Made by a program: the position numbers and the translations under genes. From a virus, in the IMG/VR virus record IMGVR_UViG_3300037539_000019: a stretch of 39,796 nt of DNA. One strand, written 5' to 3'. Below the pieces are notes generated by a model. The model worked only from the letters and a program-made list of their open reading frames with translations. It was not told the DNA's origin and did not search any database. The stretch's first letter is position 1; each line of letters begins with the position of its first letter. Positions 1,853 to 36,753 of the stretch are shown one piece after another.

Positions 1853-1876
1853 TTAGCTATTTCGCTAAATTGCTAG
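1853..1876 (+). repeat. 8-bp-periodic box array A1 (TTAGCTAT TTCGCTAA ATTGCTAG)
   Basis: Three phased 8-bp units with a GCT core and AT-rich spacers. Intergenic, overlapping the tape-measure stop codon. Confidence 0.85.
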
Positions 1877-4413
1877 TCGGCGTTGTCGCCCAGGCGGCCA
1901 CGCTGCCCGCGTGCGGCCTGGCGGTCGCGCGCGTCCAGCTCGGCGCGAACCTTCTTCGCGACCTGCTCTTCAGACATCCCCGGGGCAGCCTGTACGGTGA
2001 TTCCGCCGTACTGGTTGACCTGCTGCGGCGCAGCAGCTCGACCAGCAGGCGACGCCACGCCCCCCACGGCAGCCGCGCGCGTGCCACCAGCGCCCACCGT
2101 GCCAGCCTCGGCGCCGGCTCCGGCGCCACCACCAGCAGGCGCAGCAGCGGCCGCCGGCGAATCGCTGCCGAAGATCCCGCCGGCGAAGTTTTTGATCTTC
2201 TCGATAGGCCCCATGACCTTCTCGGCGATCCAGTCGATAGCCGCGCCACAGGCGTTTTTGATGCCTTCCCACAGCGTCGAGAAGAACCCCGTCAGCGGCT
2301 CCCACGCCTGAATCACCAGGCCGAGCGGGCTGAACATCAGCAGGGACTTGATAACTTCCCAGCCCATGAAAAACGCCGCCTTGATGCCATCCCACAGGCC
2401 GCTAAAGAACGTCGACAGCGGTTCCCAATAGCGCACCACCAGGGCGACCACGGCAATCAGCGCCATGATGCCCAGGATGATCAGCCCGATAGGGTTGGCC
2501 ATCATCGCGGCGTTTAGCGCCCACTGCGCCGCCGTCATCAGCGCCGCACCCACGGCGAAGGCCCGCGACGCGGTGCCCATCAGGAACACCCCGGCAGCGG
2601 CCCCCATGGCGCGAACGCGCGTTACCAGTAACGCCGCTTGCGCGCGCAGGTTGGTCAGCGTGAAGAACGCCAGCGACTTGCTGGCCAACAGCATCGCGTC
2701 GGACATAAAGGCGAAGGCGAAGCGCCCGCCGATGGTGGCCACCTTCAGGGCGATCAGCCCGACGATGGCATAGGCCACCACGGTCGACAGGAACGGGAAG
2801 CGCTCGGTCAGCATCGTGACGAAGCCCGCCAACTGCCCCAGGCTGTCGGCGGCGAACACCATGGCCGGGGCGAACAGCTTGCCGACAGCGGCCGACAGGT
2901 TGCCCAGGCGCTGGCCGAACAGGCCGAACACGGCGACCGGGCCTTGCTGCATCGCGCGGGCCATTTCTTCCGTGGTCGTCATGCCGCCGCGCAGGCTGTC
3001 GTCAAGACTGCCCATGCTGGCCTTGAGCGCGTCGACCTCGGGATATAGCAGCTTGATCAGCGCGACAGCCTCTTCGGTGCCGAACGCCTTTTGCAGCTCG
3101 GCCGCCTCGACCGCGTCGAGCGTGTCGCCGTACTTGCCGCGCAGCTCTTCCAAAATCTCGGGCATCGAACGCAACTGGTCGTTAGCATCCAGAAACGTCA
3201 GGCTCAGGGCATCGCCCGCCTTCGACGCCGCGTTCAGAAATGCCCGGTACTTGGTCGCCGCCTCGCTGCCCGACATCGTCGCTTGCAGGTGCCCCAGGAT
3301 CGACAACTGTTCGGCAAACGGCACGTTGGCCGACGTAGCTGTCGCGCCCAGGGCGGAAATGGCGCTGCTCATTTCCTGGCCGTTGGTTTTGAACGCCCGC
3401 ACGCTGGTCGCGATGCCCGCCGAAAAGTATTCGCCGAACTTGATGTCGCGTTCCTCGGCGCTCAGCTTCTGCCAGCCCTCGACCGTCGAGGCGCCGAACG
3501 CTTCGAACTGCTTGCGATAGATGCCATAGCCCGACGCGAACAGGTTGGTCATTTGCGCCGTGCTGGCCTTGGTCGCGGCGCCCGTCAGGGCCGCGATGCG
3601 GGTGAACTCGCCGACCGCCGCGTCGCCCAGGCTGGCAATACCCGACTTGATGTCGTAGGACGCGCGGATAAAGTCGCCCGTAGTGGTTCCCGCCCACTGA
3701 TCAGAGAACGCCTTGGCCTTGGCGGTGATCGCCTCGATACCCGGGTCGTCGATCTTCAGCGACCGGATTTCGCCCTGTGCGGCCGCCACGTCGCCATAGG
3801 CGTCGACCAGCTTCTTGATACCGAACACCGTGGCGCCCACGCCGACCGCGTCAGCGGTGGCAGACATCCGCATTTCGCTGTTGCGCTTCTTGATGTCGGC
3901 GACGCGCTTCTGTTGCTCGGCGACGCCGGCAAGGGCCTTTTGTTCCTTGGCCAACTGCTCGTTATAGCGCTTGGTCTGCACCTCGATTCGGCGCGTCGCC
4001 TCGCCCAGCTTGCCGGTATTGACCCCCGCTTCTTTCAGCTTCGCCCCGGTCTGCTGCAACTCCAGGCGCTCGGCCTGCTGCTGCGCTTGCAAGCGCTTGA
4101 CCTGGGCCGTCGCCTTCTCAAACTCGGCCGTCATTTTGCGCGACGGCTCGGCGGTGGCGGCCAGTTGCTGCCCCAGGGCCTTGGCCTTGGCCTGGGCGGC
4201 GGCCAGGGCGTCGCCGGTCTTGGCGCCGCGTTCCTGCAACGCCTTGAAATGCTCGATGTCCTTGGACGTGCTGCCGAGCCTGGCCAGCTCGGTTTGGGTC
4301 GACTTGATCTTGTCGCCCATCTTCGTGGTTTCGCTGGTGACCTTCTGAATCGGGCCGGTGATCTTGTCCACCAGACCCATGATCAGGTTAAGCCGCATAG
4401 AGTTGGTCGACAT
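1873..4413 (-). CDS. Tail tape measure protein
   Basis: 846-aa ORF after the E/E' chaperones. Coiled-coil-like N half, hydrophobic stretches, Gly/Ala-rich C terminus. Position is typical of gpT. Confidence 0.85.
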   Translation of the reverse strand: MSTNSMRLNLIMGLVDKITGPIQKVTSETTKMGDKIKSTQTELARLGSTSKDIEHFKALQERGAKTGDALAAAQAKAKALGQQLAATAEPSRKMTAEFEKATAQVKRLQAQQQAERLELQQTGAKLKEAGVNTGKLGEATRRIEVQTKRYNEQLAKEQKALAGVAEQQKRVADIKKRNSEMRMSATADAVGVGATVFGIKKLVDAYGDVAAAQGEIRSLKIDDPGIEAITAKAKAFSDQWAGTTTGDFIRASYDIKSGIASLGDAAVGEFTRIAALTGAATKASTAQMTNLFASGYGIYRKQFEAFGASTVEGWQKLSAEERDIKFGEYFSAGIATSVRAFKTNGQEMSSAISALGATATSANVPFAEQLSILGHLQATMSGSEAATKYRAFLNAASKAGDALSLTFLDANDQLRSMPEILEELRGKYGDTLDAVEAAELQKAFGTEEAVALIKLLYPEVDALKASMGSLDDSLRGGMTTTEEMARAMQQGPVAVFGLFGQRLGNLSAAVGKLFAPAMVFAADSLGQLAGFVTMLTERFPFLSTVVAYAIVGLIALKVATIGGRFAFAFMSDAMLLASKSLAFFTLTNLRAQAALLVTRVRAMGAAAGVFLMGTASRAFAVGAALMTAAQWALNAAMMANPIGLIILGIMALIAVVALVVRYWEPLSTFFSGLWDGIKAAFFMGWEVIKSLLMFSPLGLVIQAWEPLTGFFSTLWEGIKNACGAAIDWIAEKVMGPIEKIKNFAGGIFGSDSPAAAAAPAGGGAGAGAEAGTVGAGGTRAAAVGGVASPAGRAAAPQQVNQYGGITVQAAPGMSEEQVAKKVRAELDARDRQAARGQRGRLGDNAD

Positions 4414-4450
4414 TTCCCCACCCCATAAAAAAAGGGCCGGGCGGCCCCTG

Positions 4451-4863
4451 TCAGGACTGCCCGGCCTTACCCTGCTCGTAGCGCTCCAGGGCGATGCGGT
4501 GCCAGCGCATAAGCTCGGCGAGCGTCATGCGCTCCGTCGTCAGCGCGTCCCAGCCGGTGAAGACCAGGAAGATGTCGGCTTCCGCCTCCATCACGTCGCG
4601 CGGAACGGCGGTCACTCCATGAAAAAAGCGACCACCTCCGTTTGCACCGCCATCAGGTCTTTCGGCGACAGCAGGTCGAATTCATTGGCGGTGATGTTGG
4701 AAATGCGCGGCACCAGGGTACGGTGGGCGGTGACGTTCATGCGGATCACGTCGAACATATCCAGGCCGCGCAGCTCACCGGCGCCAGGCTCGCGGAAGGT
4801 CACTTCGGTGATTTCGGTTTCGCCGCGCTTGAGCGGGCGCTTCAGGGTGACGGGGGTAGTCAT
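4451..4863 (-). CDS. Tail assembly chaperone E+E' (product of a programmed -1 frameshift)
   Basis: Coding strand reads GCT TTT TTC (A6 run at 4622-4627 on the plus strand) three codons before the gpE stop. The -1 frame stays open with high GC3 to TGA at 4451-4453. It encodes ...DVMEAEADIFLVFTGWDALTTERMTLAELMRWHRIALERYEQGKAGQS (P2 GpE'-like). Confidence 0.6.
4612..4863 (-). CDS. Tail assembly chaperone gpE
   Basis: 83-aa ORF between the tube and tape measure genes, ending in a slippery T-run. Confidence 0.75.
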   Translation of the reverse strand: MTTPVTLKRPLKRGETEITEVTFREPGAGELRGLDMFDVIRMNVTAHRTLVPRISNITANEFDLLSPKDLMAVQTEVVAFFME

Positions 4864-4903
4864 TTCGCTAAATCCTTGATTCGCTAATTATGGAATTCGT
4901 GAC
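4864..4903 (+). repeat. 8-bp-periodic box array A2 (TTCGCTAA ATCCTTGA TTCGCTAA TTATGGAA TTCGTGAC)
   Basis: Two exact TTCGCTAA units 16 bp apart, in phase. Intergenic, abutting the gpE start codon. Confidence 0.7.
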
Positions 4904-4918: not shown

Positions 4919-5431
4919 TTATTGGGCCAGCGCCTGGCGGATTTCCTTGTTACGGTCTTTGCCGTTGATGCGGAAAATGTTGTTCATCTTGTCGATGTAA
5001 ATACGTTCCTTGCCGTCGACTTCGAAGTGGAAGAACTCGACCGCGATGGCGAATTTCATGGTCGCTTCCTTCTCGGGCGCCCACTCGTTGAACTCCAGCG
5101 ACTTCCAGAAGCCTTGCATTCGCACGATTACGGTCTTGATCGAGCCGTCACGGTCGACGGCACCGCGAATGGTGAACACCTCGTCGCGGCTCTCGCGCGA
5201 GCCGACAAGGTCGGTCACCTTCTCCGGGTAGTCGGAAATGGTGACTTCAGCTTCCAGCTTTTCCAGCCGGCCCAGGTCGCGCTCGATGTCGCCGGCGACG
5301 CCGGCCATGGCCGCGTCCATGGTCTTGACCACGATCTTCGGCAGCGCGACGGTATTGCAAACGCCGGCGAACGATTCGTCCTGAAAGAACGAATTCATAT
5401 CGACCAGCACACTCGGCAGCTTGGCGCCCAT
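4919..5431 (-). CDS. Tail tube protein (P2 FII-like)
   Basis: 170-aa ORF directly after the sheath gene. Size and order are typical. Confidence 0.85.
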   Translation of the reverse strand: MGAKLPSVLVDMNSFFQDESFAGVCNTVALPKIVVKTMDAAMAGVAGDIERDLGRLEKLEAEVTISDYPEKVTDLVGSRESRDEVFTIRGAVDRDGSIKTVIVRMQGFWKSLEFNEWAPEKEATMKFAIAVEFFHFEVDGKERIYIDKMNNIFRINGKDRNKEIRQALAQ

Positions 5432-5442: not shown

Positions 5443-6585
5443 TTATTCGAAAACGGCTTCGTTGTAGCTGTTGTTGACGTGCTGGCGGAACGTCATGCGC
5501 TCGGCCACGTCGTAGAAGCCCAGGTCATAGTCCCAATAGACTTGCCCGGTGCCGATGGCGGCGATGTTCAGTTCCTTGTCGACCCAGCATTCGCCGCCGC
5601 TGATCACCTCGCGCGTCTTCAGACGGCGAATCAGCTTGTTGACGCGGTTCTTCACGCCGTCGACATAGCCCTTGGTGACGTTGCGGTCGAGCAACTCTTG
5701 GTGCGCGTACAGGATCGAATCGCCCACGATGTAGCGGATGCGCTGGTGGGGCAGCATGACCTTGTTGGCCAGGCGGTTGCCGTACAGATACCAGCCGCCT
5801 TGCTGGTTGACGATCACCGTCACGTTCTTGCTGTTGTACAGATTGGCCTTGCTGGTCGTGCTGCCGATGGCGTGGTCGATCACTTCGTCGGTGCCGAGGA
5901 TGCCGAAAATCTTGCGGCTCGACGGGCTGTGCCAATAGCCCTCTTCGTTGTCGACGCGCACGATATGGCCCGCCACGGTGGCCGACGCCTTGCGGGTCAC
6001 GACCTGGCCGGTTTCATCGTCCAGCAGCTTGACGCCGCAATTGACGAACAGCGCTTCCTGATACAGCGCGCATTCAGCGATCACCGCGGAATAGCCGGTC
6101 TGGCTGCCGTCGATGATCGGGATAGCGTTCAGCTTCTTGGCGATGGCCTCCATTTCGGCGCCGACGCCCAGCAGGTGGCTGAACTCGGGCGCGATCAGCA
6201 GGCGCGGACGCACGCCCAGCAGCGACTCGGCAGCGAGGAAGGCTTTCATGCCGGTGTACTGGCCGGTTTCGTTGTCGATGCTGCCCAGCACGTCAGCGAT
6301 TTGCGCTTCCGGCGTCTCGGCGGTATCGACACGCACCACGACCACAATGGCGCCTGTCTGGCGGTAGATGTCTTTCAGCGCGTTGCGCAGGGTGCCCAGG
6401 GTGCCGGCCTTGGCGATCAGCTTGTCGCTGTTGCACAGCACCGGGGTATTGAGCGGGAACACCAGCGGGTCGGCATCGTCGGCGGTGGCCACCAGGCCGA
6501 TGGTCGACGCCGCCAGGACTTCGATAGGACGGTCGAGGTTTTCGAGGAAGTATTGCTCGACCCCGTGCAGATAATCGGCTGCCAT
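5443..6585 (-). CDS. Contractile tail sheath protein (P2 FI-like)
   Basis: 380-aa ORF preceding the tube gene. High GC3. Family call from memory. Confidence 0.9.
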   Translation of the reverse strand: MAADYLHGVEQYFLENLDRPIEVLAASTIGLVATADDADPLVFPLNTPVLCNSDKLIAKAGTLGTLRNALKDIYRQTGAIVVVVRVDTAETPEAQIADVLGSIDNETGQYTGMKAFLAAESLLGVRPRLLIAPEFSHLLGVGAEMEAIAKKLNAIPIIDGSQTGYSAVIAECALYQEALFVNCGVKLLDDETGQVVTRKASATVAGHIVRVDNEEGYWHSPSSRKIFGILGTDEVIDHAIGSTTSKANLYNSKNVTVIVNQQGGWYLYGNRLANKVMLPHQRIRYIVGDSILYAHQELLDRNVTKGYVDGVKNRVNKLIRRLKTREVISGGECWVDKELNIAAIGTGQVYWDYDLGFYDVAERMTFRQHVNNSYNEAVFE

Positions 6586-13373: not shown

Positions 13374-13397
13374 TTCGCTAATTCGCGCTTTCGCGCT
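13374..13397 (+). repeat. 8-bp-periodic box array A3 (TTCGCTAA TTCGCGCT TTCGCGCT)
   Basis: Three phased units. Intergenic, between the capsid stop (13400) and the terminator. Confidence 0.8.
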
Positions 13398-24506: not shown

Positions 24507-24530
24507 TTAGCTAAATCGCTAATTTGCTAT
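24507..24530 (+). repeat. 8-bp-periodic box array A4 (TTAGCTAA ATCGCTAA TTTGCTAT)
   Basis: Three phased units. Intergenic, between the stop of ORF 24534..24992 and a small hairpin (CCCGTG-ACG-CACGGG, 24484-24498) upstream of int. Confidence 0.8.
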
Positions 24531-24533
24531 TGG

Positions 24534-24992
24534 TTAATGCGTGACGGGCTGTCGCTGCTCAATCGCCAAGGCCAGCTCGACAGGGGCGCGAACCGCATAG
24601 TTTCGGGCGACGCAGTCGAAAGCGCCGGAAAGCAAGTCGGCAGCAACGGGCAGACCGGCGAACGGGCAGCAGTTGACGGCGGGGCCAGGGCCGCGCGCCT
24701 CAAGATCGAACCCGCGCAGGCCGACCAGCCACCAAGCCAGCGCCATAGGGGTCAGCGGCTTGGCGAACATCAGGCAATGCACGCCCGGCGCCTGCCAGCT
24801 CCCGGCCAGGCTGTAGCCTTCAGCGCCACCCACGTCAGCGAAGCGCTCTTCGATCAGCTCCATGGCGGCAGCATCGAGCGGCAACAGCGACGCGCGGGTC
24901 GTCACCAGGCGCACGTCGAAGCCAAGGGCGGCACCGACGGCGGCCGTGTCCTGCCCCACGAAACCAGCAAACAACGGGTGAATCTTCATCAT
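24534..24992 (-). CDS. Hypothetical protein
   Basis: 152-aa ORF with an ATGA overlap to the Q-like gene. High GC3. Confidence 0.6.
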   Translation of the reverse strand: MMKIHPLFAGFVGQDTAAVGAALGFDVRLVTTRASLLPLDAAAMELIEERFADVGGAEGYSLAGSWQAPGVHCLMFAKPLTPMALAWWLVGLRGFDLEARGPGPAVNCCPFAGLPVAADLLSGAFDCVARNYAVRAPVELALAIEQRQPVTH

Positions 24993-26707: not shown

Positions 26708-26971
26708 TCAGAACGGCAAACCGGCGATGCCGGGCAACTCAACAACAGGACGCGGCCAGCAACACACGCCACCTGTCGCCCTATGCGGGAACGGGTAGGC
26801 GTCACAGTGGCAAGTCGCCGAGCGCCAAGGCTTGGCATCTGCCCAGCGATCCAGCCGGCCGACCCGACTACAGGCCGGGCAGCGCGAGAACCCGGGGCGC
26901 CCCTTGAAGCGCTTGCCGCATTCCTTCGACGTGCAGCGACAGTGCTGGGGGCTAAGCCTTGAACTTCGCAC
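26708..26971 (-). CDS. Cys-rich (zinc-binding?) small protein
   Basis: 87 aa with a GTG start. Contains CRCTSKECGKRF...CPAC...CHCDAYPFPHRATGGVCCW. Confidence 0.5.
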   Translation of the reverse strand: MRSSRLSPQHCRCTSKECGKRFKGRPGFSRCPACSRVGRLDRWADAKPWRSATCHCDAYPFPHRATGGVCCWPRPVVELPGIAGLPF

Positions 26972-27188
26972 GCCCTTCCTCCAGCGCCCGCCAGAACGGG
27001 TTATAGATGCCGTTGAAATCGACGCGGCCGCCGCTCTTTTTCACGATGTTCAGCGCCGAACGAAACGACGGCATCCGCTCGAAACGGCGCCACGAATCCA
27101 CCGTCCGGCGCTTCTCCCCCAGCAGCTCGGCAGCGGCGGCGGGGCCGTCGCTGGTCGAAAGGCTGTCAATCCAGGGGTTCAGTTCCAC
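26952..27188 (-). CDS. Cro-like HTH regulator (start uncertain)
   Basis: Divergent from the CI-like gene. HTH-like AAELLGEKRRTVDSWRRFERMP. The first 27 codons of the track ORF (to 27269) are AT-rich and cover the operators, so the GTG at 27188 is preferred. Confidence 0.55.
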   Translation of the reverse strand: MELNPWIDSLSTSDGPAAAAELLGEKRRTVDSWRRFERMPSFRSALNIVKKSGGRVDFNGIYNPFWRALEEGRAKFKA

Positions 27189-27205
27189 AGTAAATCCGTT
27201 ATTAA

Positions 27206-27225
27206 CAGTATTCGTGTAAATACTG
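27206..27225. promoter_or_regulatory. Operator-like palindrome CAGTATT-cgtgta-AATACTG
   Basis: 7-bp perfect arms in the cI/cro divergent region. Confidence 0.5.
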
Positions 27226-27257
27226 GCCACGGCTTCACGTATTTGCAAGCTGTTTTT

Positions 27258-27282
27258 AGTGTTATTCACACTTTGCGTGTAT
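27258..27282. promoter_or_regulatory. Overlapping operator-like palindromes (AGTGTtattcACACT; TCACACTTTGCGTGTAT)
   Basis: Read directly. The 17-mer at 27266-27282 matches 13/17 with the 28030-28046 palindrome. Confidence 0.55.
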
Positions 27283-27327: not shown

Positions 27328-27987
27328 ATGTCTGACATCCGCAAGAAGATCGGCGCGCGCCTGAAGTCGTGCCGCGCAGCGAAGGGCTGGACGTTCAACG
27401 AGACGGCGGCGCACCTGTCGGCGATCAGTGGGCAAAAGATCATCCCGTCGCGTTATGGCAACTGGGAACTAGCGATCAACACGCCGCCGCTCGAAATGCT
27501 GATCGCCCTGGGCGCGCTCTTCGGCAAGCCACCGGCCTACCTGGGCGCCATCAGCGACGACGACGGCACCGCACCCGAGGCCGGGCGCTTCACCGTGCCC
27601 GCCCTGTCCACTATCCCGACCGCCAGCGGCACCGCCGACCTGGGCGAAGACTTCTATGCACCGCGCATAACCTGGCTCGACGAAATCAAGCTCGACAAGG
27701 GCAAGATGCTGCTTATGAGCGCGCCCGACGACAGCATGGGCGGCGTGATCGAGCAAGGCGACCCGGTCATGCTCGACCTTAGCGTCACCAACGTGACGCG
27801 TGACGACATATTCGCCATCATGGTCGGCGACCGGCCTTGGTTGCGCTGGATCAAGCAACAGCTCGACGGCACCTATAGCATCCAGGCCGAAGCCCGCGAC
27901 CACTACCCCGACCAGGTCATGACCCCGGGCGAACTGGCCAAGCTGCGAATCCTCGGCCGCGTCAAGCTGATTACACACGTCCGCTAA
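27328..27987 (+). CDS. CI-like repressor (N-terminal HTH, C-terminal S24 LexA-type peptidase)
   Basis: 219 aa. HTH is WTFNETAAHLSAISGQKI. S24 features are DDSMGGVIEQGDPVMLD and a downstream Lys (RWIKQQ). Divergent from the Cro-like gene. Confidence 0.85.
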   Translation: MSDIRKKIGARLKSCRAAKGWTFNETAAHLSAISGQKIIPSRYGNWELAINTPPLEMLIALGALFGKPPAYLGAISDDDGTAPEAGRFTVPALSTIPTASGTADLGEDFYAPRITWLDEIKLDKGKMLLMSAPDDSMGGVIEQGDPVMLDLSVTNVTRDDIFAIMVGDRPWLRWIKQQLDGTYSIQAEARDHYPDQVMTPGELAKLRILGRVKLITHVR

Positions 27988-28384: not shown

Positions 28385-28837
28385 ATGCAGGCAGAAATGG
28401 AAATCCAGGGCGAAGACGTTGTCGGCGTCCCAGGCCAAGCGCTCACCTGGCGCGAATTGCGTGTCTTAGTCGGCCTCGCCGATGGCGAGAACCCCAACAC
28501 CATCGCGGCCGCAATCAACGCCGATAAGGTCGCGGTGCGCTACATAGAAGCCAGCATCAAGGCCAAGCTCGGCGCCAAGACTCACCCCCACATGATCGCC
28601 CGAGGCTTTACCCTCGGCGTCTTGTTTCCGCGCGCCCTATGCGTGCTGCTTGCCCTGGCATGCGTCGCCGAAAGCGACTTCGACGCCGTGCGCAACCGCA
28701 CCCCCAGCCGCTCGCGCGCCCCTTCCAGCCTGACCCGACTGACCCGTGCCGGCGCCGGCAGCAGTCGCGGCGGCCACCGCAGCACCTCCAGCAGCACCGC
28801 CATCGCCGCGCGCGGCGGCTTGGTCATCTTTAGCTAA
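28385..28837 (+). CDS. LuxR/GerE-type HTH protein with a hydrophobic segment and a Ser/Arg-rich tail
   Basis: Track ORF trimmed to the ATG at 28385. LTWRELRVLVGLADGENPNTIAAAINADKVAVRYIEASIKAKLG fits the GerE HTH. This is followed by ALCVLLALACVA and an S/R-rich tail. High GC3 throughout. Confidence 0.6.
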   Translation: MQAEMEIQGEDVVGVPGQALTWRELRVLVGLADGENPNTIAAAINADKVAVRYIEASIKAKLGAKTHPHMIARGFTLGVLFPRALCVLLALACVAESDFDAVRNRTPSRSRAPSSLTRLTRAGAGSSRGGHRSTSSSTAIAARGGLVIFS

Positions 28838-28861
28838 TTCGCTAATTCAATAATTCGCTTG
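28830..28861 (+). repeat. 8-bp-periodic box array A5 (TTAGCTAA TTCGCTAA TTCAATAA TTCGCTTG), upstream half of the parA operator
   Basis: Four phased units. The last one overlaps the -35 of the parA promoter. Confidence 0.85.
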
Positions 28862-28886
28862 CACTGCGCGCCCGCGCGCTTATACT
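28859..28886 (+). promoter_or_regulatory. parA promoter (TTGCAC - 16 nt - TATACT)
   Basis: Sigma70-like hexamers read directly. Sandwiched between arrays A5 and A6. Confidence 0.55.
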
Positions 28887-28896: not shown

Positions 28897-28920
28897 TTAG
28901 CTAATTCGCTAATTCTCGCA
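28897..28920 (+). repeat. 8-bp-periodic box array A6 (TTAGCTAA TTCGCTAA TTCTCGCA), downstream half of the parA operator
   Basis: Three phased units between the -10 and the AAGGAG ribosome-binding site of parA. Confidence 0.85.
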
Positions 28921-28934: not shown

Positions 28935-29573
28935 ATGGGTTACAAGATCGGTTTCGGCTCGCAGAAGGGCGGCGTCTGGAAATCCACCCTCGCCCGCGCA
29001 CTCGGCACGGCGTTCGCCGCCAATGACTGGTCGGTGAAAATCGCCGACCTCGATACCAAGCAAGGCACCTGCACCGCCTGGCAACAGCGCCGACTGCGCA
29101 ACGGCATCACGCCAGACGTGCCCGTCCAGATGTTCGGCAACGTGGCCACCGCCATCAGCAAGGCCGGCGACGCTGACCTGTTGATCTTCGACGGCGCCCC
29201 GCACGCCAGCACCGAGACGGTGGAAATCGCCAAGGCATGCGACTTGATGATCCTGCCGACCGGCCTGTCGGTCGACGACCTAGAACCGACCGTCACCCTG
29301 GCCAACACCCTGGCCGACAAACACGGCATCGAGTCGCGCCGCATCGTCTTCGCCCTGTGCAAAGCCACCAGCACCGCCGAGGTGCAGGCCGCGCGCGAGT
29401 ACCTGGGCAAAACCCGCTTTGCCACCCTCGACGGCTCCATCCAGCACAAGCCCGCCTATAGCCGCGCGCTGGACGCCGGCCAATCGCTGATCGAAACGCC
29501 GTACAAGTCGCCGCGCGAACAGGCCATGCAGGTCGTACAGTCGGCCATCGCCAAATTCGAAGAACTGATTTAA
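28935..29573 (+). CDS. parA: ParA/ParF-type partition ATPase (type Ib, small ParA)
   Basis: 212 aa. Deviant Walker A region GSQKGGVWKST. Overall resemblance to ParF-like ATPases. AAGGAG lies 8 nt upstream. Confidence 0.85.
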   Translation: MGYKIGFGSQKGGVWKSTLARALGTAFAANDWSVKIADLDTKQGTCTAWQQRRLRNGITPDVPVQMFGNVATAISKAGDADLLIFDGAPHASTETVEIAKACDLMILPTGLSVDDLEPTVTLANTLADKHGIESRRIVFALCKATSTAEVQAAREYLGKTRFATLDGSIQHKPAYSRALDAGQSLIETPYKSPREQAMQVVQSAIAKFEELI

Positions 29574-29576: not shown

Positions 29577-29616
29577 ATTAGCGATTTAGCTAAATCGCTA
29601 TTATGCTAATGCACGA
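29577..29616 (+). repeat. 8-bp-periodic box array A7, including the 22-bp perfect palindrome TAGCGATTTAGCTAAATCGCTA
   Basis: ATTAGCGA TTTAGCTA AATCGCTA TTATGCTA ATGCACGA. It fills the parA-parG spacer. The palindrome is at 29579-29600. Confidence 0.85.
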
Positions 29617-29637: not shown

Positions 29638-29916
29638 ATGACCACCAAGACCAGCACCGCCCCGCAGATCAAGACCCCGAAGCCGCCGCGCGGCAAGGGC
29701 GAGCCGCCGAAGTCTGCCGCCGACACGCCAGCCGTGGGCAACAACACCAGCACCGGCAGCGACAGCAAGCTGGTCGACCTGGGCTTCAAGGTGTCGCCAG
29801 AGTTTCGCAAGAATTTCCGGCTCTTCTGCGCCACCCACGAAATTGCCCAGGTGGATGCACTCAAGGAAGCGCTTGCGGACTACATGAGCAAAAAAGGCTG
29901 GGAACCCAGCAACTAA
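29638..29916 (+). CDS. Small centromere-binding protein, ParG-like (disordered basic N tail plus a C-terminal RHH-like fold)
   Basis: 92 aa. Pro/Lys-rich N tail, then KLVDLGFKVSPEFRKNFRLFCATHEIAQVDALKEALADYM (beta-alpha-alpha pattern). Position immediately after a small ParA. Confidence 0.6.
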   Translation: MTTKTSTAPQIKTPKPPRGKGEPPKSAADTPAVGNNTSTGSDSKLVDLGFKVSPEFRKNFRLFCATHEIAQVDALKEALADYMSKKGWEPSN

Positions 29917-30578: not shown

Positions 30579-30597
30579 TCCCGCCCAGGAACGAACA

Positions 30598-30625
30598 AGC
30601 CCCGCCAAGTGCGGGGCTTTTTATT
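30598..30625 (+). terminator. Intrinsic terminator closing the plus-strand operon (convergent junction)
   Basis: AGCCCCGC-CAAGT-GCGGGGCT followed by TTTTATT. Confidence 0.75.
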
Positions 30626-30638
30626 GCGTCGTGACGCG

Positions 30639-31195: not shown

Positions 31196-31350
31196 CGCCG
31201 CGCCCCCTTGGCGCGCTGTTGCGTGCCGTCCTGGCGAACTAGCCGATAGTCATTGCCACGAGCCAGCCGGGCGACGTGGCGGCCGTGGTACTCCAGGGCG
31301 AAGCCGTCACGCTGTAGCGCGGCGATAGCCGCTTGCTGTGCCGTCGTCAT
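31192..31350 (-). CDS. Possible 52-aa ORF
   Basis: ATGA overlaps at both ends. MTTAQQAAIAALQRDGFALEYHGRHVARLARGNDYRLVRQDGTQQRAKGARR. Below the track cutoff. Confidence 0.4.
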   Translation of the reverse strand: MTTAQQAAIAALQRDGFALEYHGRHVARLARGNDYRLVRQDGTQQRAKGARR

Positions 31351-31652
31351 GCTCTTGGCCTCTTCGGTGGGCGCTTGTAGGGGGTCACGTTCTCCAGCAC
31401 CTGACGGACGCCGCCCGCGTCACGAAAGGCCGCGAACGCCTCGGCATGGGCGGCGCAGTAATGCAGCTCCGGCCCGTGTTCCTGGGCGTGGTACTCGCAC
31501 AGGGCGCGGTCGCAGGTCTGCCCCTCGCCCACCGGGTAATCGCACAGGTAGCCGCCCACGTCGCCGCATTCGGCGCAGTGGGGGCCGAGGTCGCCGCAGA
31601 TATGCCCGCGCGGCGCCCGGTTCGCGTCATAGAGCGTATAGCAGGCCATCAC
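31347..31652 (-). CDS. Cys/His-rich small protein
   Basis: 101 aa with multiple CxxC/CxxH motifs. ATGA-coupled. Confidence 0.55.
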   Translation of the reverse strand: MMACYTLYDANRAPRGHICGDLGPHCAECGDVGGYLCDYPVGEGQTCDRALCEYHAQEHGPELHYCAAHAEAFAAFRDAGGVRQVLENVTPYKRPPKRPRA

Positions 31653-31891
31653 GGATCACCCGGCAGTTCGCGCAACAGGTCGGCCAGGTCGCGCCACGGG
31701 TTACGGGCGAAGTCGGAACGCGCCGCGCAGCCGTCAGCATGCACGAACAATTCGCCGGCCTTGCTCGCCAGGTGGCCACGGCCGCAGGTGCGGCAGCGGA
31801 TCAGGTCGCCGTCGACCTCCCACTGGCGGGCGTGCTCGATCAAGCCACCGTCGAGCCGGCGGCGGGCTTCGTTACGGTCACGGGCGGTCAT
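31649..31891 (-). CDS. Hypothetical small protein
   Basis: Track ORF trimmed to the ATG at 31891 (ATGA overlap). 80 aa, contains CRTCGRGH...C. Confidence 0.5.
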   Translation of the reverse strand: MTARDRNEARRRLDGGLIEHARQWEVDGDLIRCRTCGRGHLASKAGELFVHADGCAARSDFARNPWRDLADLLRELPGDP

Positions 31892-32142
31892 GCCGGCACC
31901 GCCAGCAGCGAAGCCCAGGCGCTGGAATTGACCACCCAAACGCCGCGATGGCCGGGGCCAATCAGCACGCGGGCGGCGTCCAGGGCATCGAGCAACACGG
32001 CGGCGCGCCGGCGGCCGATGTTGAAGCGCCGGGCCAGGCCGACCGGGCCGACGCGGTGGCGGGCAGCGGCAAAGCGCGCGGCCGCCGCATACAGCGGATC
32101 AGCGGCGCCGGGTGGCGGGGCGTAGAACGCGACGGGCATCAT
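31888..32142 (-). CDS. FtsK-gamma-domain-like winged-helix protein
   Basis: 84 aa. DPLYAAAARFAAARHRVGPVGLARRFNIGRRRAAVLLDALDAARVLIGPG resembles the FtsK gamma domain (LY..A...V......S.S.LQR...IGYNRAARL.D.ME..G.V). Confidence 0.5.
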   Translation of the reverse strand: MMPVAFYAPPPGAADPLYAAAARFAAARHRVGPVGLARRFNIGRRRAAVLLDALDAARVLIGPGHRGVWVVNSSAWASLLAVPA

Positions 32143-32438
32143 TGGGCCACCTCGACCAGATCGCTCAACACCTCACAGCGCGCAGCCGCGCGGGCGCGGA
32201 TATGCTCGCGCAGCTCGTCGTGCTGGTCGTCTGACAGCTCGCCATAGATATAAGCGGCCAGGGTCAGCGCATCGGCGCGCCACTCCAGCCGGGCGACGGA
32301 CTCGCCCCAGGCGGCCGACTCTATCAAGCCGAGCGTGTGCTTGATCTGTACGCCGACTTGCAGACCGTCCACCACGGTGGCCAGTGCCTCGGGTAGCTGC
32401 TGGCGACCTTGCGCGGTCGTCGATGGTGATTCGTTCAT
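32139..32438 (-). CDS. Hypothetical small protein
   Basis: 99 aa. ATGA-coupled. Confidence 0.55.
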   Translation of the reverse strand: MNESPSTTAQGRQQLPEALATVVDGLQVGVQIKHTLGLIESAAWGESVARLEWRADALTLAAYIYGELSDDQHDELREHIRARAAARCEVLSDLVEVAQ

Positions 32439-32526
32439 AGGTTCTCCAGGGTGTCGGGGTCTGCGTCAAACCAGCAGGCGGGGTAATGGTATGCCACTTG
32501 CCGGGGGTCTGGTAGCCGCCGAGCAT

Positions 32527-32549
32527 GAAAAAGCCGACCAGGGGTCGGC
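32527..32549 (-). terminator. Intrinsic terminator-like hairpin inside the early operon
   Basis: Minus strand reads GCCGACC-CCT-GGTCGGC followed by TTTTTC. Confidence 0.55.
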
Positions 32550-32594
32550 GTGTTGTGGGGGGCGATTTAACAATCTCTCCGTTATGCGTAGCGC

Positions 32595-32786
32595 TCAGCC
32601 CTCGGCGCGGTAACGCTCTTTCAGATACTCGGCCGTCGCTTCCGGGCCGCCGTGGCGCTTTACAAACGCATCCAGCGGCTCGGCGTCGCCGCAGTCGGTC
32701 AGCCGGAACGGGCAGCGAATTTCTACGGCACCGCTGTCATGGCGGGCGGTGATGAAGTTGGCGCCACTCTCAAACTCGATTTTCAT
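32595..32786 (-). CDS. Hypothetical small protein
   Basis: 63-aa ORF with high GC3. Confidence 0.5.
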   Translation of the reverse strand: MKIEFESGANFITARHDSGAVEIRCPFRLTDCGDAEPLDAFVKRHGGPEATAEYLKERYRAEG

Positions 32787-32871
32787 GGGGTCGGTTCCTA
32801 CCGGCTGCGCCGGGCTTGGTTGTGGGTGCCCCTCGGTCTGTCGGGGGCGGGTTCCTTTCAGGTCGTGACGG

Positions 32872-33354
32872 TCACGCGTCTTTTGTCGGGCGGCGGCGCA
32901 GGGCTCGCAACACGGCCGCTTCTAGTGCTTCCTTGCCGCCGTAGTCGTGGCGCTGCGAATAGCTGGCGTACAGCTTGCGCAGAGGCAGCAACAGCTCTTC
33001 GATTTCATGGGCGCGCTTGGCGTCGGCCTCCAGCTTGTCGCTACGCTGTTCGGCCTCGGCGGCCTCGTCACGGACGCGCCAATCTATCCGCGCCGGCTCG
33101 TCAGACCACTGGCCTTGATAGGTGGCTTCGCCCAGCTTGCGCACCTGTTCATCTGAAAAGCTCGCGCCCCGGTAGATACCGCCGACCGCCTTGCCCTTCA
33201 GGGTTCGATATTCAAACAGCATGCGTTCGCCCAGGGCGCCGTCGACGATAACAATCACCTCGGCGCCCATCTTGCCGCTCTTCAGCAGGCGGCGGCCTGT
33301 ATACACATAATCGCGCGCGACGAACTCGGCGGCGCCTTCTTCTTTCTTGGTCAT
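32872..33354 (-). CDS. Hypothetical protein
   Basis: 160-aa ORF. Confidence 0.6.
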   Translation of the reverse strand: MTKKEEGAAEFVARDYVYTGRRLLKSGKMGAEVIVIVDGALGERMLFEYRTLKGKAVGGIYRGASFSDEQVRKLGEATYQGQWSDEPARIDWRVRDEAAEAEQRSDKLEADAKRAHEIEELLLPLRKLYASYSQRHDYGGKEALEAAVLRALRRRPTKDA

Positions 33355-33369
33355 CGGTGCGGGTTCCTT

Positions 33370-33615
33370 TCAGTTCGGGCGGTCGTCCGGGTTCTCTAGC
33401 TCCCAAAAAGCCCAGATCGTCGCGCGGGCCAATTGGTTATGCGTGGCCAAATCCAGCTCGCCACGGCCGCGCGCATAACACAGCTCGACCAGGGCTTCGA
33501 CGTGCAAGTCGTCGGCCTCTTTCAAGGTCGGCGCGGCGCGCATCGCTTCAATGCGGGCCGCTGCCTGGCGGCGCGCTTCGGCCAGCACGTCAGGGCTTGG
33601 GGTCTGCTCGATCAT
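33370..33615 (-). CDS. Hypothetical small protein
   Basis: 81-aa ORF. Confidence 0.55.
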   Translation of the reverse strand: MIEQTPSPDVLAEARRQAAARIEAMRAAPTLKEADDLHVEALVELCYARGRGELDLATHNQLARATIWAFWELENPDDRPN

Positions 33616-33627
33616 GGGGCGGGTTCC

Positions 33628-33909
33628 TCAGTGCGTCACGTCGATGGCGAACACCTCGACCGGATCGGGGCCGAAGTGCGGGTGTGTGATGGTCGTCAGC
33701 CGGCAGCCCTTCCAGGGCAACACAAGGCGCCGGGCGCTGTCGCCGCGCTTCGGATAACCGCGCGTCAGCTCGATACGGTCGAAGCGCTGCCCCTCCAGCC
33801 GGCGCCGCCAGTAGGGCGTCACCTGGCGGAACTCTTCGGGCTTGGTGCCCGCCTTGATCGCGTCGAAATACTCGCCCTTCAGGGCCAGGGTTAGGGTTCG
33901 CATATTCAC
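33628..33909 (-). CDS. ASCH-domain-like protein
   Basis: 93 aa. TLALKGEYFDAIKAGTKPEEFR...YW resembles the ASCH/PUA-like pattern. Confidence 0.6.
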   Translation of the reverse strand: MNMRTLTLALKGEYFDAIKAGTKPEEFRQVTPYWRRRLEGQRFDRIELTRGYPKRGDSARRLVLPWKGCRLTTITHPHFGPDPVEVFAIDVTH

Positions 33910-35234
33910 CCCCGATAGTCCGTCGACAGGCCCGCGTCGCGCAGGCGCTGCTCAAACACCTTGAGCGCCGCCATTGAGCCGTTGCGCTCTCTTTCGAGCA
34001 ATTCGTTTTCGCTGCGCAGCCGTTCCGCTTCGCGGCGAGCATCGGCGGCGCGCTGCATATCAGCATTGGCCACGCGCACCGTTTCGCGCACGCGATGCAG
34101 AGCGTCCAGGCAGACGACCACCGGGCCACGCTCAGCCAGCAAGGCCGCCATATCCTCGGGCAGTTGCTCGACGCCCTGCCATTGGCCGTCGACCTGATCG
34201 GCGCCAATCGCGCGCAAGGCGCGCTCGGCAGCCTCGGCGCGGGCCTGCCACTGGCGGGCCTCCCGCTCGGCCGCTTGCTGCTCGCGCTGCGCGTGCCGCT
34301 TGCCGGCCTCGGCGTTCCAGCGCATAGAGGCCAGTGGGCGGGCTTCGGCCGGGCGCCAGTCGGCACCAGGCGCGATCTTGCGCAGCAAAGCCAACTGCTC
34401 GGCGGCTGCGTCGCCGGTGGGGTTGTTGTGTTCGTTGAACAGGTCGAGGCCGTTGCGCAGAATTTTGCGCTCGGAAGCGGTCAGCATGACCGGCTTTAGC
34501 CCCTCTTTTTCCTTCAACTCGCGCAGCTTGTCGCGGCGGCGCTTCTGCCGCTCGGCACCGCTCAAGGGCTTTTTCGGCTCGGGCTGGTCGCCGAACATGG
34601 CCAGTTGTCCGTCACGCGTCACGCCTGCCAGCACGTCGACCAGCCAGGCCGGGCGCTTCTCGATCCACCGCAAATCCTCTTTCTTGATCGGCGTCAGCCC
34701 TTCGGCTGCAATCTGCGCGGCAATCTCGGCGCGCACCGCCTGTTCAAGCGTGCGGCCCATATGGTCGGTGACAGTCAGGTAAACGCCTCGGTATCCGGTC
34801 GGGCTGATAAACGGCTTATTGAAGTCCACCGCCGTCGCGTCGAAGCCCGGCGCCGAGCGCAGCCCCTGGCATTCGTATTTGACCAGCACGCGCACCCCGT
34901 CGACCTCGACCAGAAATTCGCCGTCCTGGCCCCAGTGCGGCACCTGGCCAGGCTTGGCCACATGCTGGGCATCGAGCACGCGCCCGGGGCGGGTGTCGTC
35001 GCCACGGCAGCCGAAGAACGTGCCGCCGTTCAGCTTGTAGACAATGGCGTCATGCTCAAGGGTGGTCGCCGCGCGAGCACCTTCATCGCCGGCGATGATC
35101 GCGTCGTTATAGATCGCGCGCAGGCGGCCGGCGCGGGCGTGCATCGCCTCGATGTCATCCGGCAGGCTGGCCAGCATGGCCAGGAACTCGGGCCGCTCTT
35201 CGCGCTCCAGGGGCTTGGCTTTTTTCTTCGCCAT
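33906..35234 (-). CDS. Large early protein of unknown function (globular N half, coiled-coil C half)
   Basis: The track ORF runs to 35252. The ATG at 35234 has GGAG 8 nt upstream. About 442 aa. The C-terminal 150 aa are Arg/Glu/Ala/Gln-rich heptad-like sequence. Confidence 0.65.
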   Translation of the reverse strand: MAKKKAKPLEREERPEFLAMLASLPDDIEAMHARAGRLRAIYNDAIIAGDEGARAATTLEHDAIVYKLNGGTFFGCRGDDTRPGRVLDAQHVAKPGQVPHWGQDGEFLVEVDGVRVLVKYECQGLRSAPGFDATAVDFNKPFISPTGYRGVYLTVTDHMGRTLEQAVRAEIAAQIAAEGLTPIKKEDLRWIEKRPAWLVDVLAGVTRDGQLAMFGDQPEPKKPLSGAERQKRRRDKLRELKEKEGLKPVMLTASERKILRNGLDLFNEHNNPTGDAAAEQLALLRKIAPGADWRPAEARPLASMRWNAEAGKRHAQREQQAAEREARQWQARAEAAERALRAIGADQVDGQWQGVEQLPEDMAALLAERGPVVVCLDALHRVRETVRVANADMQRAADARREAERLRSENELLERERNGSMAALKVFEQRLRDAGLSTDYRG

Positions 35235-35294
35235 CGTTCGCACTCCAGTCATGGCGCAGCCTCAATGCCAGGCCATGACTAGAATTCTACACAC

Positions 35295-35342
35295 TTAGCT
35301 AATTCGCGCAATAGCTAATTAGCATATTTGCTAACTAGCTAA
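35295..35342 (+). repeat. 8-bp-periodic box array A8 (six units: TTAGCTAA TTCGCGCA ATAGCTAA TTAGCATA TTTGCTAA CTAGCTAA)
   Basis: Longest array. Intergenic, overlapping the stop of the Rha-like gene. Confidence 0.85.
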
Positions 35343-36357
35343 GGCGTGCCGAAATGCGGGTCAGGCAAGCGTCCATGATGGCGGGCAACGCCCTGTCGGG
35401 GGCATGCAGTCTCAGCAGCTCGGTCAGGCGCTCGCTGTCCGCCAGGTCGACCACCACCGCGCCGGTCGGAACCGCCTTTAGTTGCGGCTGTCCGCCGGCG
35501 TCGATGCTCATAAGCCAGCGCTTATTGGCAACGATCAGGGCGGCCATGTTGTCGGCGATACGCTGTTCGGCCGCGTGATCCCATTGAGGCCGAACGCCGC
35601 CAGCGGCGTCCACCGCCTGCCGGCAACTGGTGAAGTAGTCCATGGCGAGGGCGCGGGCGTCACGCATAACGGGGCCGAACGAAACCGCCGGGAAGGGGCC
35701 GCCAGAAACGCCCGGCAGCGCAGCGGCCAGCCACTCGCGGAACGGCTCGGCGCGATCCTGCTGCGCCCGGCGCAGCGCATCGAGCACGGAAGGCCACGCC
35801 AGCATTTGCAGCGAACGCCCGCCAGCTTCTACGCGGGTAATCCACCCTCGATCCTGGCGGCGGGTAATGCGGTTGGCGCTGTCGAAGCCGAGAATGCGCG
35901 CCAGTACCGTCGCGCCAAACCAATAGGCGCCGTCGATTCGCGCAACTGGCAGGGCGTGGGCGCCATAGCTCAACTGGGAAAACTCGACGACGGCGGCCGG
36001 GGCCTCGACCGGCCGGGCGGCCAACTGCTCGGCCATCCAATTGAAGGCGTCGATATAGGCTTCCTTGACTCGCGCCGCCTTGGCGCCGGTGAAGCCCATC
36101 ACCAGAAAGACAAACCCGTCCTTGGTCATTTCATAGAACGGCACTTCACGCCGAACCGCCCCAGCGGCGCGGGCTTGAGCCGTGGCCGCAAAATTGCGGG
36201 CACGGAATTCGGGCGAACAGTCCAGGGTGCGGACGCGGCGCAAAACGTCGTCGTGCCGCTTTCCGAAGGCTTCGGCAACTTTCAGGGAGGTCGTGCGGGG
36301 CTGGCCGGCGACGGCGGTAACGAACTGGCGGGGGTCAAGCGTAGCAATAGCGGTCAT
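35335..36357 (-). CDS. Rha-family phage regulatory protein / antirepressor-like
   Basis: 340 aa. N terminus ...TTSLKVAEAFGKRHDDVLRRVRTL...FYEMTKDGFVFLVMGFTGAKA fits the Rha family. A second BRO/KilAC-like segment follows. Confidence 0.7.
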   Translation of the reverse strand: MTAIATLDPRQFVTAVAGQPRTTSLKVAEAFGKRHDDVLRRVRTLDCSPEFRARNFAATAQARAAGAVRREVPFYEMTKDGFVFLVMGFTGAKAARVKEAYIDAFNWMAEQLAARPVEAPAAVVEFSQLSYGAHALPVARIDGAYWFGATVLARILGFDSANRITRRQDRGWITRVEAGGRSLQMLAWPSVLDALRRAQQDRAEPFREWLAAALPGVSGGPFPAVSFGPVMRDARALAMDYFTSCRQAVDAAGGVRPQWDHAAEQRIADNMAALIVANKRWLMSIDAGGQPQLKAVPTGAVVVDLADSERLTELLRLHAPDRALPAIMDACLTRISARLS

Positions 36358-36501
36358 GGCGGAATCTCTGCGTTAGGGGAAGAACCCGCACGCCATCGAC
36401 CAAGATGGCGGGCGAAGCTGGGCGGGTTGGTCGACCGGACGCAGGGCCGGCAGGGCGTAAGCCCTCCCACCCAGCCCCACCCATAAAGGCAGAGCCGAGC
36501 T

Positions 36502-36538
36502 GCGGACACAAAAAAACCGCTATAAGCGGCGTGTCCGC
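36502..36538 (-). terminator. Terminator-like nested hairpin in the 430-bp leader upstream of the Rha-like gene
   Basis: Minus strand reads GCGGACAC-G-CCGCT-TAT-AGCGG-TTTTTTT-GTGTCCGC. The inner stem plus T7 run looks like an intrinsic terminator, and the outer 8-bp stem offers an alternative fold. Confidence 0.45.
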
Positions 36539-36721
36539 TGCGTTACCGGGCGACCAAACCCGACTGCCGATTTTGCGACAGCGGGCCGACCTTAATCCCA
36601 GCACCTTTTGACTGTCAATCAAAAGAGGCCCCCACACCCTGAAGACAGCAGGCGCAGGCATCGGATTAGCTCCGGTAATGGCCTTGGCGTAACGCCCGGC
36701 CGTGCGGCGCATTTTACACAC

Positions 36722-36753
36722 TTAGCTAATTCGCACAATAGCTAATTCGCAGC
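36722..36753 (+). repeat. 8-bp-periodic box array A9 (TTAGCTAA TTCGCACA ATAGCTAA TTCGCAGC)
   Basis: Four phased units in the divergent intergenic region. Bases 36715-36747 are 32/33 identical to 35288-35320. Confidence 0.85.

Follow-up and report, generated by a model that had tools for sequence, protein, structure and literature searches.

In the parFGH system of plasmid TP228, the sites of the small partition protein ParG are tetramer boxes with regular 4-bp AT-rich spacers, which build both the operator (8 boxes) and the centromere (12 boxes); one ParG dimer occupies each box, and inversion of a box is tolerated (PMC3130281). On plasmid pSM19035, the copS, delta and omega promoters are overlapped by arrays of repeats to which the ribbon-helix-helix (RHH) protein omega binds, and the same arrays, at six sites, constitute parS; at least four contiguous repeats are needed there to activate its ParA (PMC9499535). 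Here, box arrays of a comparable kind are described in IMG/VR virus record IMGVR_UViG_3300037539_000019, a temperate Pseudomonas-type myovirus of 39.7 kb, which was analyzed over the whole stretch of 39,796 nucleotides (the window). Nine arrays, with 34 units in total, lie at eight loci. Three of them are found around a gene pair encoding a small ParA and a 92-aa protein (p92), and the other six are dispersed over the genome. The explanation we regard as probable is that of a type Ib (ParF/ParG-like) partition system, in which the centromere-binding protein also represses early promoters and decorates the terminators of the late operon.

The likeness to TP228 comprises a small Walker-type ParA, a small proposed binder, putatively of the RHH type, with an N-terminal tail predicted to be flexible, and boxes with an 8-bp period. 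The core is ACTC in TP228 and (A/C/T)GCT in the window, where short arrays of 2-6 units are found instead of 12 + 8 boxes, one array is located between the par genes, and six more are scattered over the 39.7-kb phage genome. In common with omega/delta of pSM19035, one RHH protein is proposed to serve both as centromere binder and as regulator of several promoters; omega, in contrast, uses 7-bp heptads, 7-10 per site, and comes from a Firmicute plasmid, not a phage. We know of no omega sites beside terminators inside structural operons.

The preliminary description of this DNA had held that no phage with dispersed par sites was known, which was overstated, since phage N15 has four separate centromere sites (PMC7205306). 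The present element resembles N15 as a likely plasmid prophage with putative centromere sites scattered over the genome, but N15 uses a type Ia system with a large helix-turn-helix (HTH) protein, SopB, that spreads from single palindromes rather than 8-bp box arrays, and it is a linear plasmid with a protelomerase and an enterobacterial siphovirus, in contrast to the circular assembly, type Ib ParA and 92-aa RHH-like partner found here. The Sop system of N15 is reported (Ravin, Rech & Lane 2008, cited in PMC11652158) to affect late gene expression. Cluster A mycobacteriophages carry many short intergenic sites, the stoperators, at which a protein expressed by the prophage stops elongation (PMC9283540). 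These sites (L5/Bxb1-type) are likewise short and spread over a phage genome in small intergenic gaps; they differ in being bound by the immunity repressor itself, as a monomer on single asymmetric sites oriented with transcription, whereas here the boxes are in tandem, a separate CI repressor is encoded, and roadblocking is only proposed. KorB of RK2/IncP-1 is both a partition protein and a global repressor with 12 dispersed operators, and represses establishment and maintenance operons including kilC/klc. The proposed resemblance to KorB lies in the operator sites of a partition protein scattered over a replicon, and in the KlcB_N domain, a domain of IncP kilC-operon proteins, which is present in relatives of a 448-aa early gene of the window (L221 12867-14063; L226 11921-13225; relatives are designated by L numbers); KorB differs in being an HTH protein of the ParB family that acts on single 13-bp palindromes of a conjugative plasmid. 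N15, omega and KorB are thus precedents for parts of the proposed system, and the element, like N15 in its dispersed sites, is not a member of the N15-type class. Our literature search found no description of a type Ib RHH system in a phage, of arrays at conserved places in structural operons, of concerted specificity swaps, or of dispersed arrays lacking in a conventional plasmid with the same cassette.

All nine arrays of the preliminary description are present in the window, throughout in 8-bp register (Table 1), and they are enriched over shuffled sequence as well as concentrated between genes. The unit TTNGCTAA gave 20 strand-hits (14 sites) against 1.84 expected from dinucleotide shuffles. 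With 500 local-composition shuffles in blocks of 30-100 bp, which control for AT-rich gaps, 1.2-1.3 sites were expected and the maximum was 5-6. Allowing up to two mismatches, TTAGCTAWWTCGC was found 24 times (1.35 expected), and in an unbiased scan of 8-mers TTAGCTAA ranked first in the genome (12 observed, 0.11 expected). Non-coding DNA makes up 10.5% of the genome and holds 12 of the 14 exact units (binomial P ~1e-10); one of the remaining two overlaps the stop codon of the gene for a LuxR/GerE-type HTH protein (LuxR-HTH) and the other, a lone unit at 6908, is coding. The arrays fill nearly all of their intergenic gaps, and a search of the genome for further arrays found none. The nearly uniform orientation described for the asymmetric units holds in the window, where all seven copies of TTCGCTAA (six in arrays and the coding singleton at 6908) and ATCGCTAA at 24515 lie on the plus strand and TTAGCGAT at 29578 is the only reversed one; it does not hold in every relative, the orientation being mixed in Aliivibrio phage H905. 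Relative to transcription, the orientation of the arrays is consistent in Vibrio phage VPHZ6 and not in H905.

Other origins of the repeat were considered. A host-wide intergenic repeat was rejected, as an exact 16-mer scan of IMG/VR gave GC-rich matches only in par-carrying relatives, the others being single chance matches in AT-rich contigs. Replication-origin iterons were rejected because the units are 8 bp long and lie at eight loci without an adjacent rep gene. To our knowledge, the consensus sites of CtrA, DnaA, matS and parS do not fit the unit.

The account of the par locus given in the preliminary description, with three arrays bracketing the parA promoter and filling the spacer between parA and the p92 gene, is correct. 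The promoter (TTGCAC-N16-TATACT) was predicted by phylogenetic footprinting, both hexamers being kept in divergent relatives while the spacer varies. ParA carries a deviant Walker A motif, GSQKGGVWKST, at residues 7-17, is without an N-terminal HTH and matches CbiA, AAA_31 and ParA in Pfam; its only sequence matches in the PDB, nearly full length, are TP228 ParA (5U1G) and ParF (4DZZ). By these features ParA is assigned to type Ib. Box arrays that adjoin the par operon and overlap with the par promoter are found in the window, in about 30 relatives and in conventional plasmids, and the par-proximal arrays are best read as a type Ib partition site, predicted to act as centromere and auto-operator.

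The p92 protein has an N-terminal tail, a predicted beta-strand (LVDLGFKV) and two helices, and is consistent with an RHH, ParG-like centromere-binding protein. A family profile built from 20 relatives matched RHH proteins in the PDB, namely 2KEL (3e-5), ParG 1P94 (0.039), ORF56 and CopG, and the match to ParG covers residues 26-74, the whole RHH domain. With the single sequence, only 2KEL was found (E 0.17), and the score against the Pfam family 56B_RHH was below its cut-off. In the AF2 monomer model, which has a mean pLDDT of 61, the N-terminal half is disordered and helices span residues 54-66 and 69-85; the beta-strand would form only in the dimer. In the tail, the motif (K/R)xG(E/A)PP is kept across all groups of relatives, with G21 and P24 invariant and P23 in at least 90% of the sequences, and is a candidate for the ParA-contacting motif.

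Relatives were recovered by an exact-motif scan and by ParA-anchored scans of IMG/VR, which yielded dozens of contigs of 37-42 kb; megablast of the par region against INPHARED phages gave no match, and relatives surfaced only in distant or protein-level searches. Relatives of this size come from Pseudomonas, Vibrio, Aliivibrio and Aeromonas, and the gene order shared by the contigs is int, early-left genes, CI, (LuxR), ParA, p92, early genes, tail. In about 30 relatives the order array, promoter, array, parA, array, p92 is kept with the 8-bp period, and the units differ. Group A, with unit TTNGCTAA, comprises the window and Pseudomonas relatives; group B, with TTAACGAA or TTAAAGAA, comprises Aeromonas and Aliivibrio relatives, and VPHZ6 mixes its units with AGCACGAA; group C (L076, L079, L083, L084) has AACGCTA(G); group D (L091, VPHZ6) has GAAAGCAC or AGCACGAA. 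A further type, CATGAAAG, occurs in a Kushneria contig. In this contig (L142, Kushneria pakistanensis, 36.5 kb, ~9860-10720), units CATGAAAA, CATGAAAG and CATGTTTT lie on both sides of the par promoter and after parA, and the protein encoded downstream of parA still starts ...KPGKGAPP.

For a test of co-variation, 12-mers were taken from the par-proximal intergenic DNA of each locus, and their recurrences more than 400 bp from parA were counted in every locus. The matrix was block-diagonal, with a mean of 2.9, 2.3 and 4.4 sites within groups A, B and C, respectively, versus 0-0.5 between these three. The motif search in related phages that had been suggested with the preliminary description thus showed that, in each relative, the dispersed arrays carry the unit found at the par locus of that relative. 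In VPHZ6, some 13 arrays of the phage's own units are present, and its par unit AGCACGAA is the top-ranked 8-mer; H905 has 6 arrays versus 0.1 expected; and in Pseudomonas aeruginosa plasmid pPAC1.3b, arrays occupy an early promoter, the par locus, the region before int and the gap that separates the tape-measure and gpU-like genes. Several positions are used again with different units. An array upstream of int is present in groups A, B, C and D, H905 and pPAC1.3b, and the arrays at repeated early promoters are likewise found across unit groups. The tape-measure/gpU gap holds an array in the window, VPHZ6, L091, and P. aeruginosa pPAC1.3b and L221, the tube/chaperone gap in the window and H905, and the position after the capsid gene in the window and VPHZ6. 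Concerted change of the unit at fixed positions is what the regulon of an element-encoded specificity factor predicts, and it therefore counts against a host factor. The earlier proposal that one small par protein of the element, with a box and AT-spacer arrangement like that of ParG in TP228, recognizes all of the arrays is strongly supported by this co-variation.

These data also bear on the idea that the arrays are signals for translation or processing at the RNA level, or that host nucleoid proteins such as MvaT and H-NS recognize them simply as AT-rich DNA. Several arrays do abut start codons (window 4864, VPHZ6 3478 and 5883, H905 35339), and AT-rich tracts in a genome of 65% GC draw xenogeneic silencers. 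However, some arrays lie upstream of promoters and so are untranscribed, and the orientation of the arrays relative to transcription is not constant. Nor would a host factor or AT-richness be expected to give a unit that co-varies with the par cassette among phages of similar backbone, and shuffles of the local composition fail to reproduce the motif. We consider both versions of this idea highly improbable.

Two candidates for the binding protein had been named, p92 and LuxR-HTH, and the evidence favors the first. The beta-strand of p92 reads VD(L/F)(G/N) in all members of group A, including the divergent L077 (38% identity), and (V/A)PLNF in all others, which matches the AGCT/CGCT cores of group A and the ACG-containing cores of the others. 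LuxR-HTH is encoded directly upstream of array 5, has a GerE-type HTH (Pfam, E 1.9e-4) and a PHROG match annotated 'sigma factor', and is kept in most relatives. Its gene is nevertheless missing in L066-L070, which retain identical arrays, and in plasmids L140 and L230, where the arrays occur together with ParA and p92 alone; its recognition helix, moreover, is not specific for the group, since L063 (unit B) and L077 (unit A) both have RHIE(A/T)S and members of group A differ. LuxR-HTH is thus most improbable as the binder.

The arrays could also be operators of the CI-type immunity repressor instead of the partition protein. CI heads the operon that also holds the par genes, the arrays overlap early promoters and precede int, where repressor sites would be expected, and CI itself diverges between unit groups, with 27-39% identity to the window protein outside group A and 50-97% within it. 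This possibility appears very unlikely nevertheless, given that the CI/Cro-type divergent region (~27170-27327) has AT-rich repeats of another kind (GTGTAWAT) and zero TTNGCTAA units, that the recognition helix SRYxNWE of CI is nearly identical in group A, B and C phages with different units, and that conventional Pseudomonas plasmids have the same arrays with ParA and p92 in the absence of CI. Direct 8-bp repeats are, in addition, ill-suited to a dimeric HTH repressor. The arrays appear to go with ParA and p92, because LuxR-HTH and CI are missing from plasmids with arrays and their helices do not track the unit, while the strand of p92 does. A separate CI repressor and a unit-free switch region exist, and the arrays would therefore represent a second regulatory layer and not the immunity system.

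Arrays 8 and 9 lie in an 82-nt direct repeat (D2), and the same early-promoter cassette was found in 18 copies from 8 group A phages, 2-4 per phage, with the consensus GCTAATTAGCTA-TTG(C/T)GC-GAATTAGCTAA-N5-TAGAAT. Both hexamers are constant and the 5 bases before the -10 hexamer vary, which is the footprint of a predicted sigma-70 promoter. In these copies, and at the two predicted early promoters of the window, the units overlap the -35 hexamer and the spacer; the promoters were assigned from conservation only. In group B phages the arrangement is similar with their own unit, the -35 hexamer TTGACG being inside a unit variant. A leader of ~35 nt is also conserved after each copy (window 36660-36710; L064, L073, L074, L075), with a consensus near gcgacgcacggccaggcaattc.gcccaggcc, and may function as an RNA element or provide an additional binding site.

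In the late region and before int, the arrays of the window stand close to terminators or hairpins (Table 1), and in VPHZ6 an array is paired with a hairpin at the tape-measure/gpU gap as well. If p92 bound all of the arrays, the dispersed ones could be nothing more than additional centromere sites, placed in the tiny intergenic gaps of a compact genome and together forming a distributed centromere. RHH centromere-binding proteins do not spread, so that the size of the complex is set by the number of repeats, for which 34 units over eight loci are available; N15 with its four separate sites is a precedent, and the arrays take up nearly the whole of their gaps. This alternative is unlikely, though less so than the others, as the reuse of few positions across unit groups and the 18 promoter copies in which arrays cover part of the -35 hexamer and spacer point to functions specific to position, a conventional plasmid with the same cassette makes do with par-proximal arrays, and several arrays have fewer than four contiguous good units.

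That plasmid is p2NCPPB4222 of Pseudomonas avellanae, a mobilizable, non-phage plasmid of 50.6 kb with homologues of ParA and p92 (63% identity). Units of TTAGCTAA flank its par promoter and fill its parA-p92 spacer, and a scan of the complete plasmid found no arrays outside par. A Pseudomonas amygdali scaffold likewise has the ParA-p92 cassette with the same units at par. Dispersal of the arrays is thus seen in phage-plasmids and not in the one conventional plasmid scanned in full. Relatives of the phage itself have been deposited as circular plasmids from P. aeruginosa (pPAC1.3b, 42.8 kb), Aeromonas veronii (37.2 kb), Edwardsiella ictaluri (36.7 kb) and Vibrio parahaemolyticus (38.6 kb), and others are stand-alone contigs of ~37 kb in isolate assemblies. 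The element is most likely maintained as a circular plasmid, and its integrase could possibly serve in dimer resolution or in integration. Plasmid pPAC1.3b (L229) consists of a 37-kb phage and a Tn3-family transposon, the latter at 37206-42774 with a resolvase and a RelE-type toxin. In P. aeruginosa relatives (L221-L224, ~10360-10990), a HigB/HigA toxin-antitoxin pair follows p92 directly, next to par.

In the mechanism that we favor, p92 dimers would bind the 4-bp (A/C/T)GCT cores, one every 8 bp with AT-rich spacers between, and would coat short arrays cooperatively in the manner of ParG on parH and OF. The three par-proximal arrays would act as centromere and auto-operator. At the arrays at 35295 and 36722, where the units cover the -35 hexamer and spacer of the duplicated early promoter, a bound RHH array would occlude RNA polymerase, and p92 would in this way repress the leftward early operons with the genes for the Rha antirepressor, the Lar-like anti-restriction protein and the 448-aa protein. 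Arrays before int and beside late terminators would hold extra p92 complexes, which could add to the size of a distributed partition complex, or halt read-through in the prophage by blocking or terminating transcription, or do both of these. The data show the arrays and that they are not random, the architecture of the cassette, the joint variation of unit and position among relatives, and the plasmid state of some of those relatives; binding by p92, repression, and centromere and roadblock activity of the dispersed arrays are all inferred.

Several observations weigh against this mechanism. In sequence, p92 resembles ParG only marginally (E 0.039), Foldseek against the PDB with the low-confidence AF2 monomer (pLDDT 61) gave only meaningless matches, and the residues of the beta-strand explain the differences in unit among the groups other than A only loosely. 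Some arrays are weak, array 3 with one canonical and two degenerate units and array 2 with two canonical units 16 bp apart, and several have only 2-3 good units. Given the requirement for at least four contiguous repeats in ParA activation on pSM19035, the small arrays may not be functional centromeres. In 24300-37000, no promoter passed a strict sigma-70 consensus scan, and the promoters were therefore assigned from conservation across relatives. Finally, all members of the family retain the integrase, so that the plasmid state of the window element is likely rather than certain.

On a broader scale, we tentatively suggest, as a possibility somewhat short of even, that a ParG-like partition protein was recruited as a second, genome-wide silencer of the prophage in a widespread family of phage-plasmids of 37-42 kb (Pseudomonas, Vibrio, Aliivibrio, Aeromonas and probably Halomonadaceae). 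If so, p92 would shut early promoters present in several copies and, through the arrays beside terminators and int, block read-through into the integrase and late genes, and its occupancy would link the lysis-lysogeny state to the copy number and segregation of the plasmid. Since a conventional plasmid that has this cassette is without dispersed arrays, these would have arisen in the phage-plasmid lineage, and on at least four occasions the protein and all of its sites would have changed together to a new specificity. Phage-plasmids are common carriers of accessory genes, and cross-talk between plasmid and phage functions is known mainly from P1 and N15. For a type Ib partition protein encoded by a phage, the present system offers a compact candidate regulon of 9 arrays and 34 units that is defined by sequence, together with natural swaps of specificity (at least four unit groups) and, in the conventional plasmid with the same cassette and without dispersed sites, a built-in control. 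It raises the questions of whether an RHH binder can act as global repressor or roadblock of a phage, whether short arrays can serve as centromeres, and how a protein and about 10 sites change specificity jointly. The cultured phages VPHZ6 and H905 and the P. aeruginosa plasmid pPAC1.3b provide tractable material.

Table 1. Coordinates of the arrays, predicted signals and identified genes in the window
Feature	Position	Strand	Units	Remarks
gpU-like tail gene	1391-1819	-		PHROG/Pfam
Intrinsic terminator	1828..1852	-		hairpin GCCGCCCCCGGGCGGC then TTTTT (RNA fold); directly after array 1 in late-sense direction
Array 1	1853..1876		TTAGCTAT TTCGCTAA ATTGCTAG	between tape-measure and gpU-like genes; tape-measure stop TAG inside unit 3
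Tape measure	1873-4413	-		PHROG/Pfam
Tail assembly chaperone	4612-4863	-		PHROG/Pfam
Array 2	4864..4895		TTCGCTAA ATCCTTGA TTCGCTAA TTATGGAA	tube/chaperone gap, abuts chaperone start codon; hairpin and GTGACGCGTGAC copy just upstream (sense)
Tail tube	4919-5431	-		PHROG/Pfam
Sheath	5443-6585	-		PHROG/Pfam
Array 3	13374..13397		TTCGCTAA TTCGCGCT TTCGCGCT	between major capsid stop codon and intrinsic terminator
Major capsid	13400-14326	-		PHROG/Pfam
Large terminase	17967-20024	-		PHROG/Pfam
Contractile tail (P2/Mu-like) and head module		-		PHROG/Pfam
Tyrosine integrase	23131-24411			Phage_integrase match (Pfam)
Array 4	24507..24530		TTAGCTAA ATCGCTAA TTTGCTAT	between stop codon of gene 24534..24992 and integrase gene; GC-rich hairpin next in sense direction
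CI-like repressor, HTH + S24 peptidase	27328..27987	+		first identified gene of lysogeny operon; Peptidase_S24 in relatives
LuxR/GerE-type HTH protein	28385..28837	+		hydrophobic C-terminal segment; stop codon inside first unit of array 5
Array 5	28830..28861		TTAGCTAA TTCGCTAA TTCAATAA TTCGCTTG	3-4 units immediately before the -35 hexamer of the parA promoter and extending into it
Predicted parA promoter	28859..28886	+		TTGCAC-N16-TATACT, phylogenetic footprint
Array 6	28897..28920		TTAGCTAA TTCGCTAA TTCTCGCA	2-3 units between parA promoter and parA ribosome-binding site
ParA	28935..29573	+		212-aa Walker-type ATPase
Array 7	29578..29609		TTAGCGAT TTAGCTAA ATCGCTAT TATGCTAA	four units, filling the parA-p92 spacer
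p92, proposed binder	29638..29916	+		directly downstream of parA
Predicted early promoter P_E1	35284..35311	-		TTGCGC-N16-TAGAAT; one unit in spacer, units over -35 hexamer
Array 8	35295..35342		six units	overlapping P_E1, between Rha gene and 448-aa gene
Predicted early promoter P_E2	36711..36738	-		TTGTGC-N16-TAAAAT
Array 9	36722..36753		four units	overlapping P_E2, upstream of Rha-antirepressor transcription unit

An exact terminal direct repeat of 127 bp (1-127 = 39670-39796) was found in the window, which therefore is a complete, circularly assembled genome of 39,669 bp with 65% GC. Gene content was derived from PHROG and Pfam scans. The head and tail genes are followed by lysis genes and then by the tyrosine integrase gene. 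The lysogeny operon on the plus strand encodes CI, a 93-aa protein, LuxR-HTH, ParA (212 aa) and p92 (92 aa), and two early units on the minus strand, which start near 36722 and 35295, encode the Rha-type antirepressor, the 448-aa protein, the Lar-like anti-restriction protein and small ORFs. The 448-aa gene (33906-35252, downstream of P_E1) had no Pfam or PHROG match in the window; the KlcB_N domain mentioned above is found in genes at its position in relatives. No replication initiator was identified in the genome, and no protelomerase was found.

Facing cI, the ORF at 27007..27219 (+) looks like the shadow of a divergent minus-strand gene (26952..27269 or shorter), and in relatives gene callers including PGAP place a divergent minus-strand gene of 79-105 aa there. 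Pfam finds no family for it, the label 'Cro-like' resting on position and inspection. The gap between this gene and cI contains the repeats GTGTAAAT, GTGTTATT and GTGTATAT, which resemble CI/Cro operators. In LuxR-HTH, a hydrophobic segment, LGVLFPRALCVLLALACV, follows the HTH and precedes a Ser/Arg-rich tail; it is kept in all groups that have the gene, and the protein may be membrane-anchored.

Other repeated sequences were noticed as well. The sequence GTGACGCGTGAC occurs in four exact copies (4899, 15444, 27793, 34611) and, with one mismatch, at 8156, 11310 and 30631, giving 8 strand-hits, two of them from the palindromic copy at 30631, versus 0.49 expected; the copies are mostly within genes, and one adjoins array 2. 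The pair CCTGGGCG/CGCCCAGG is strongly over-represented genome-wide (43 observed versus 6.7 expected), and VPHZ6 is enriched in the E. coli Chi octamer GCTGGTGG (12 versus 1.9). One contig of 76,588 bp (IMGVR_UViG_3300044878_000205) carries two related, non-identical genomes of the family, L066 and L067, ~38 kb apart, an arrangement that may reflect tandem prophages, a cointegrate or an assembly join.

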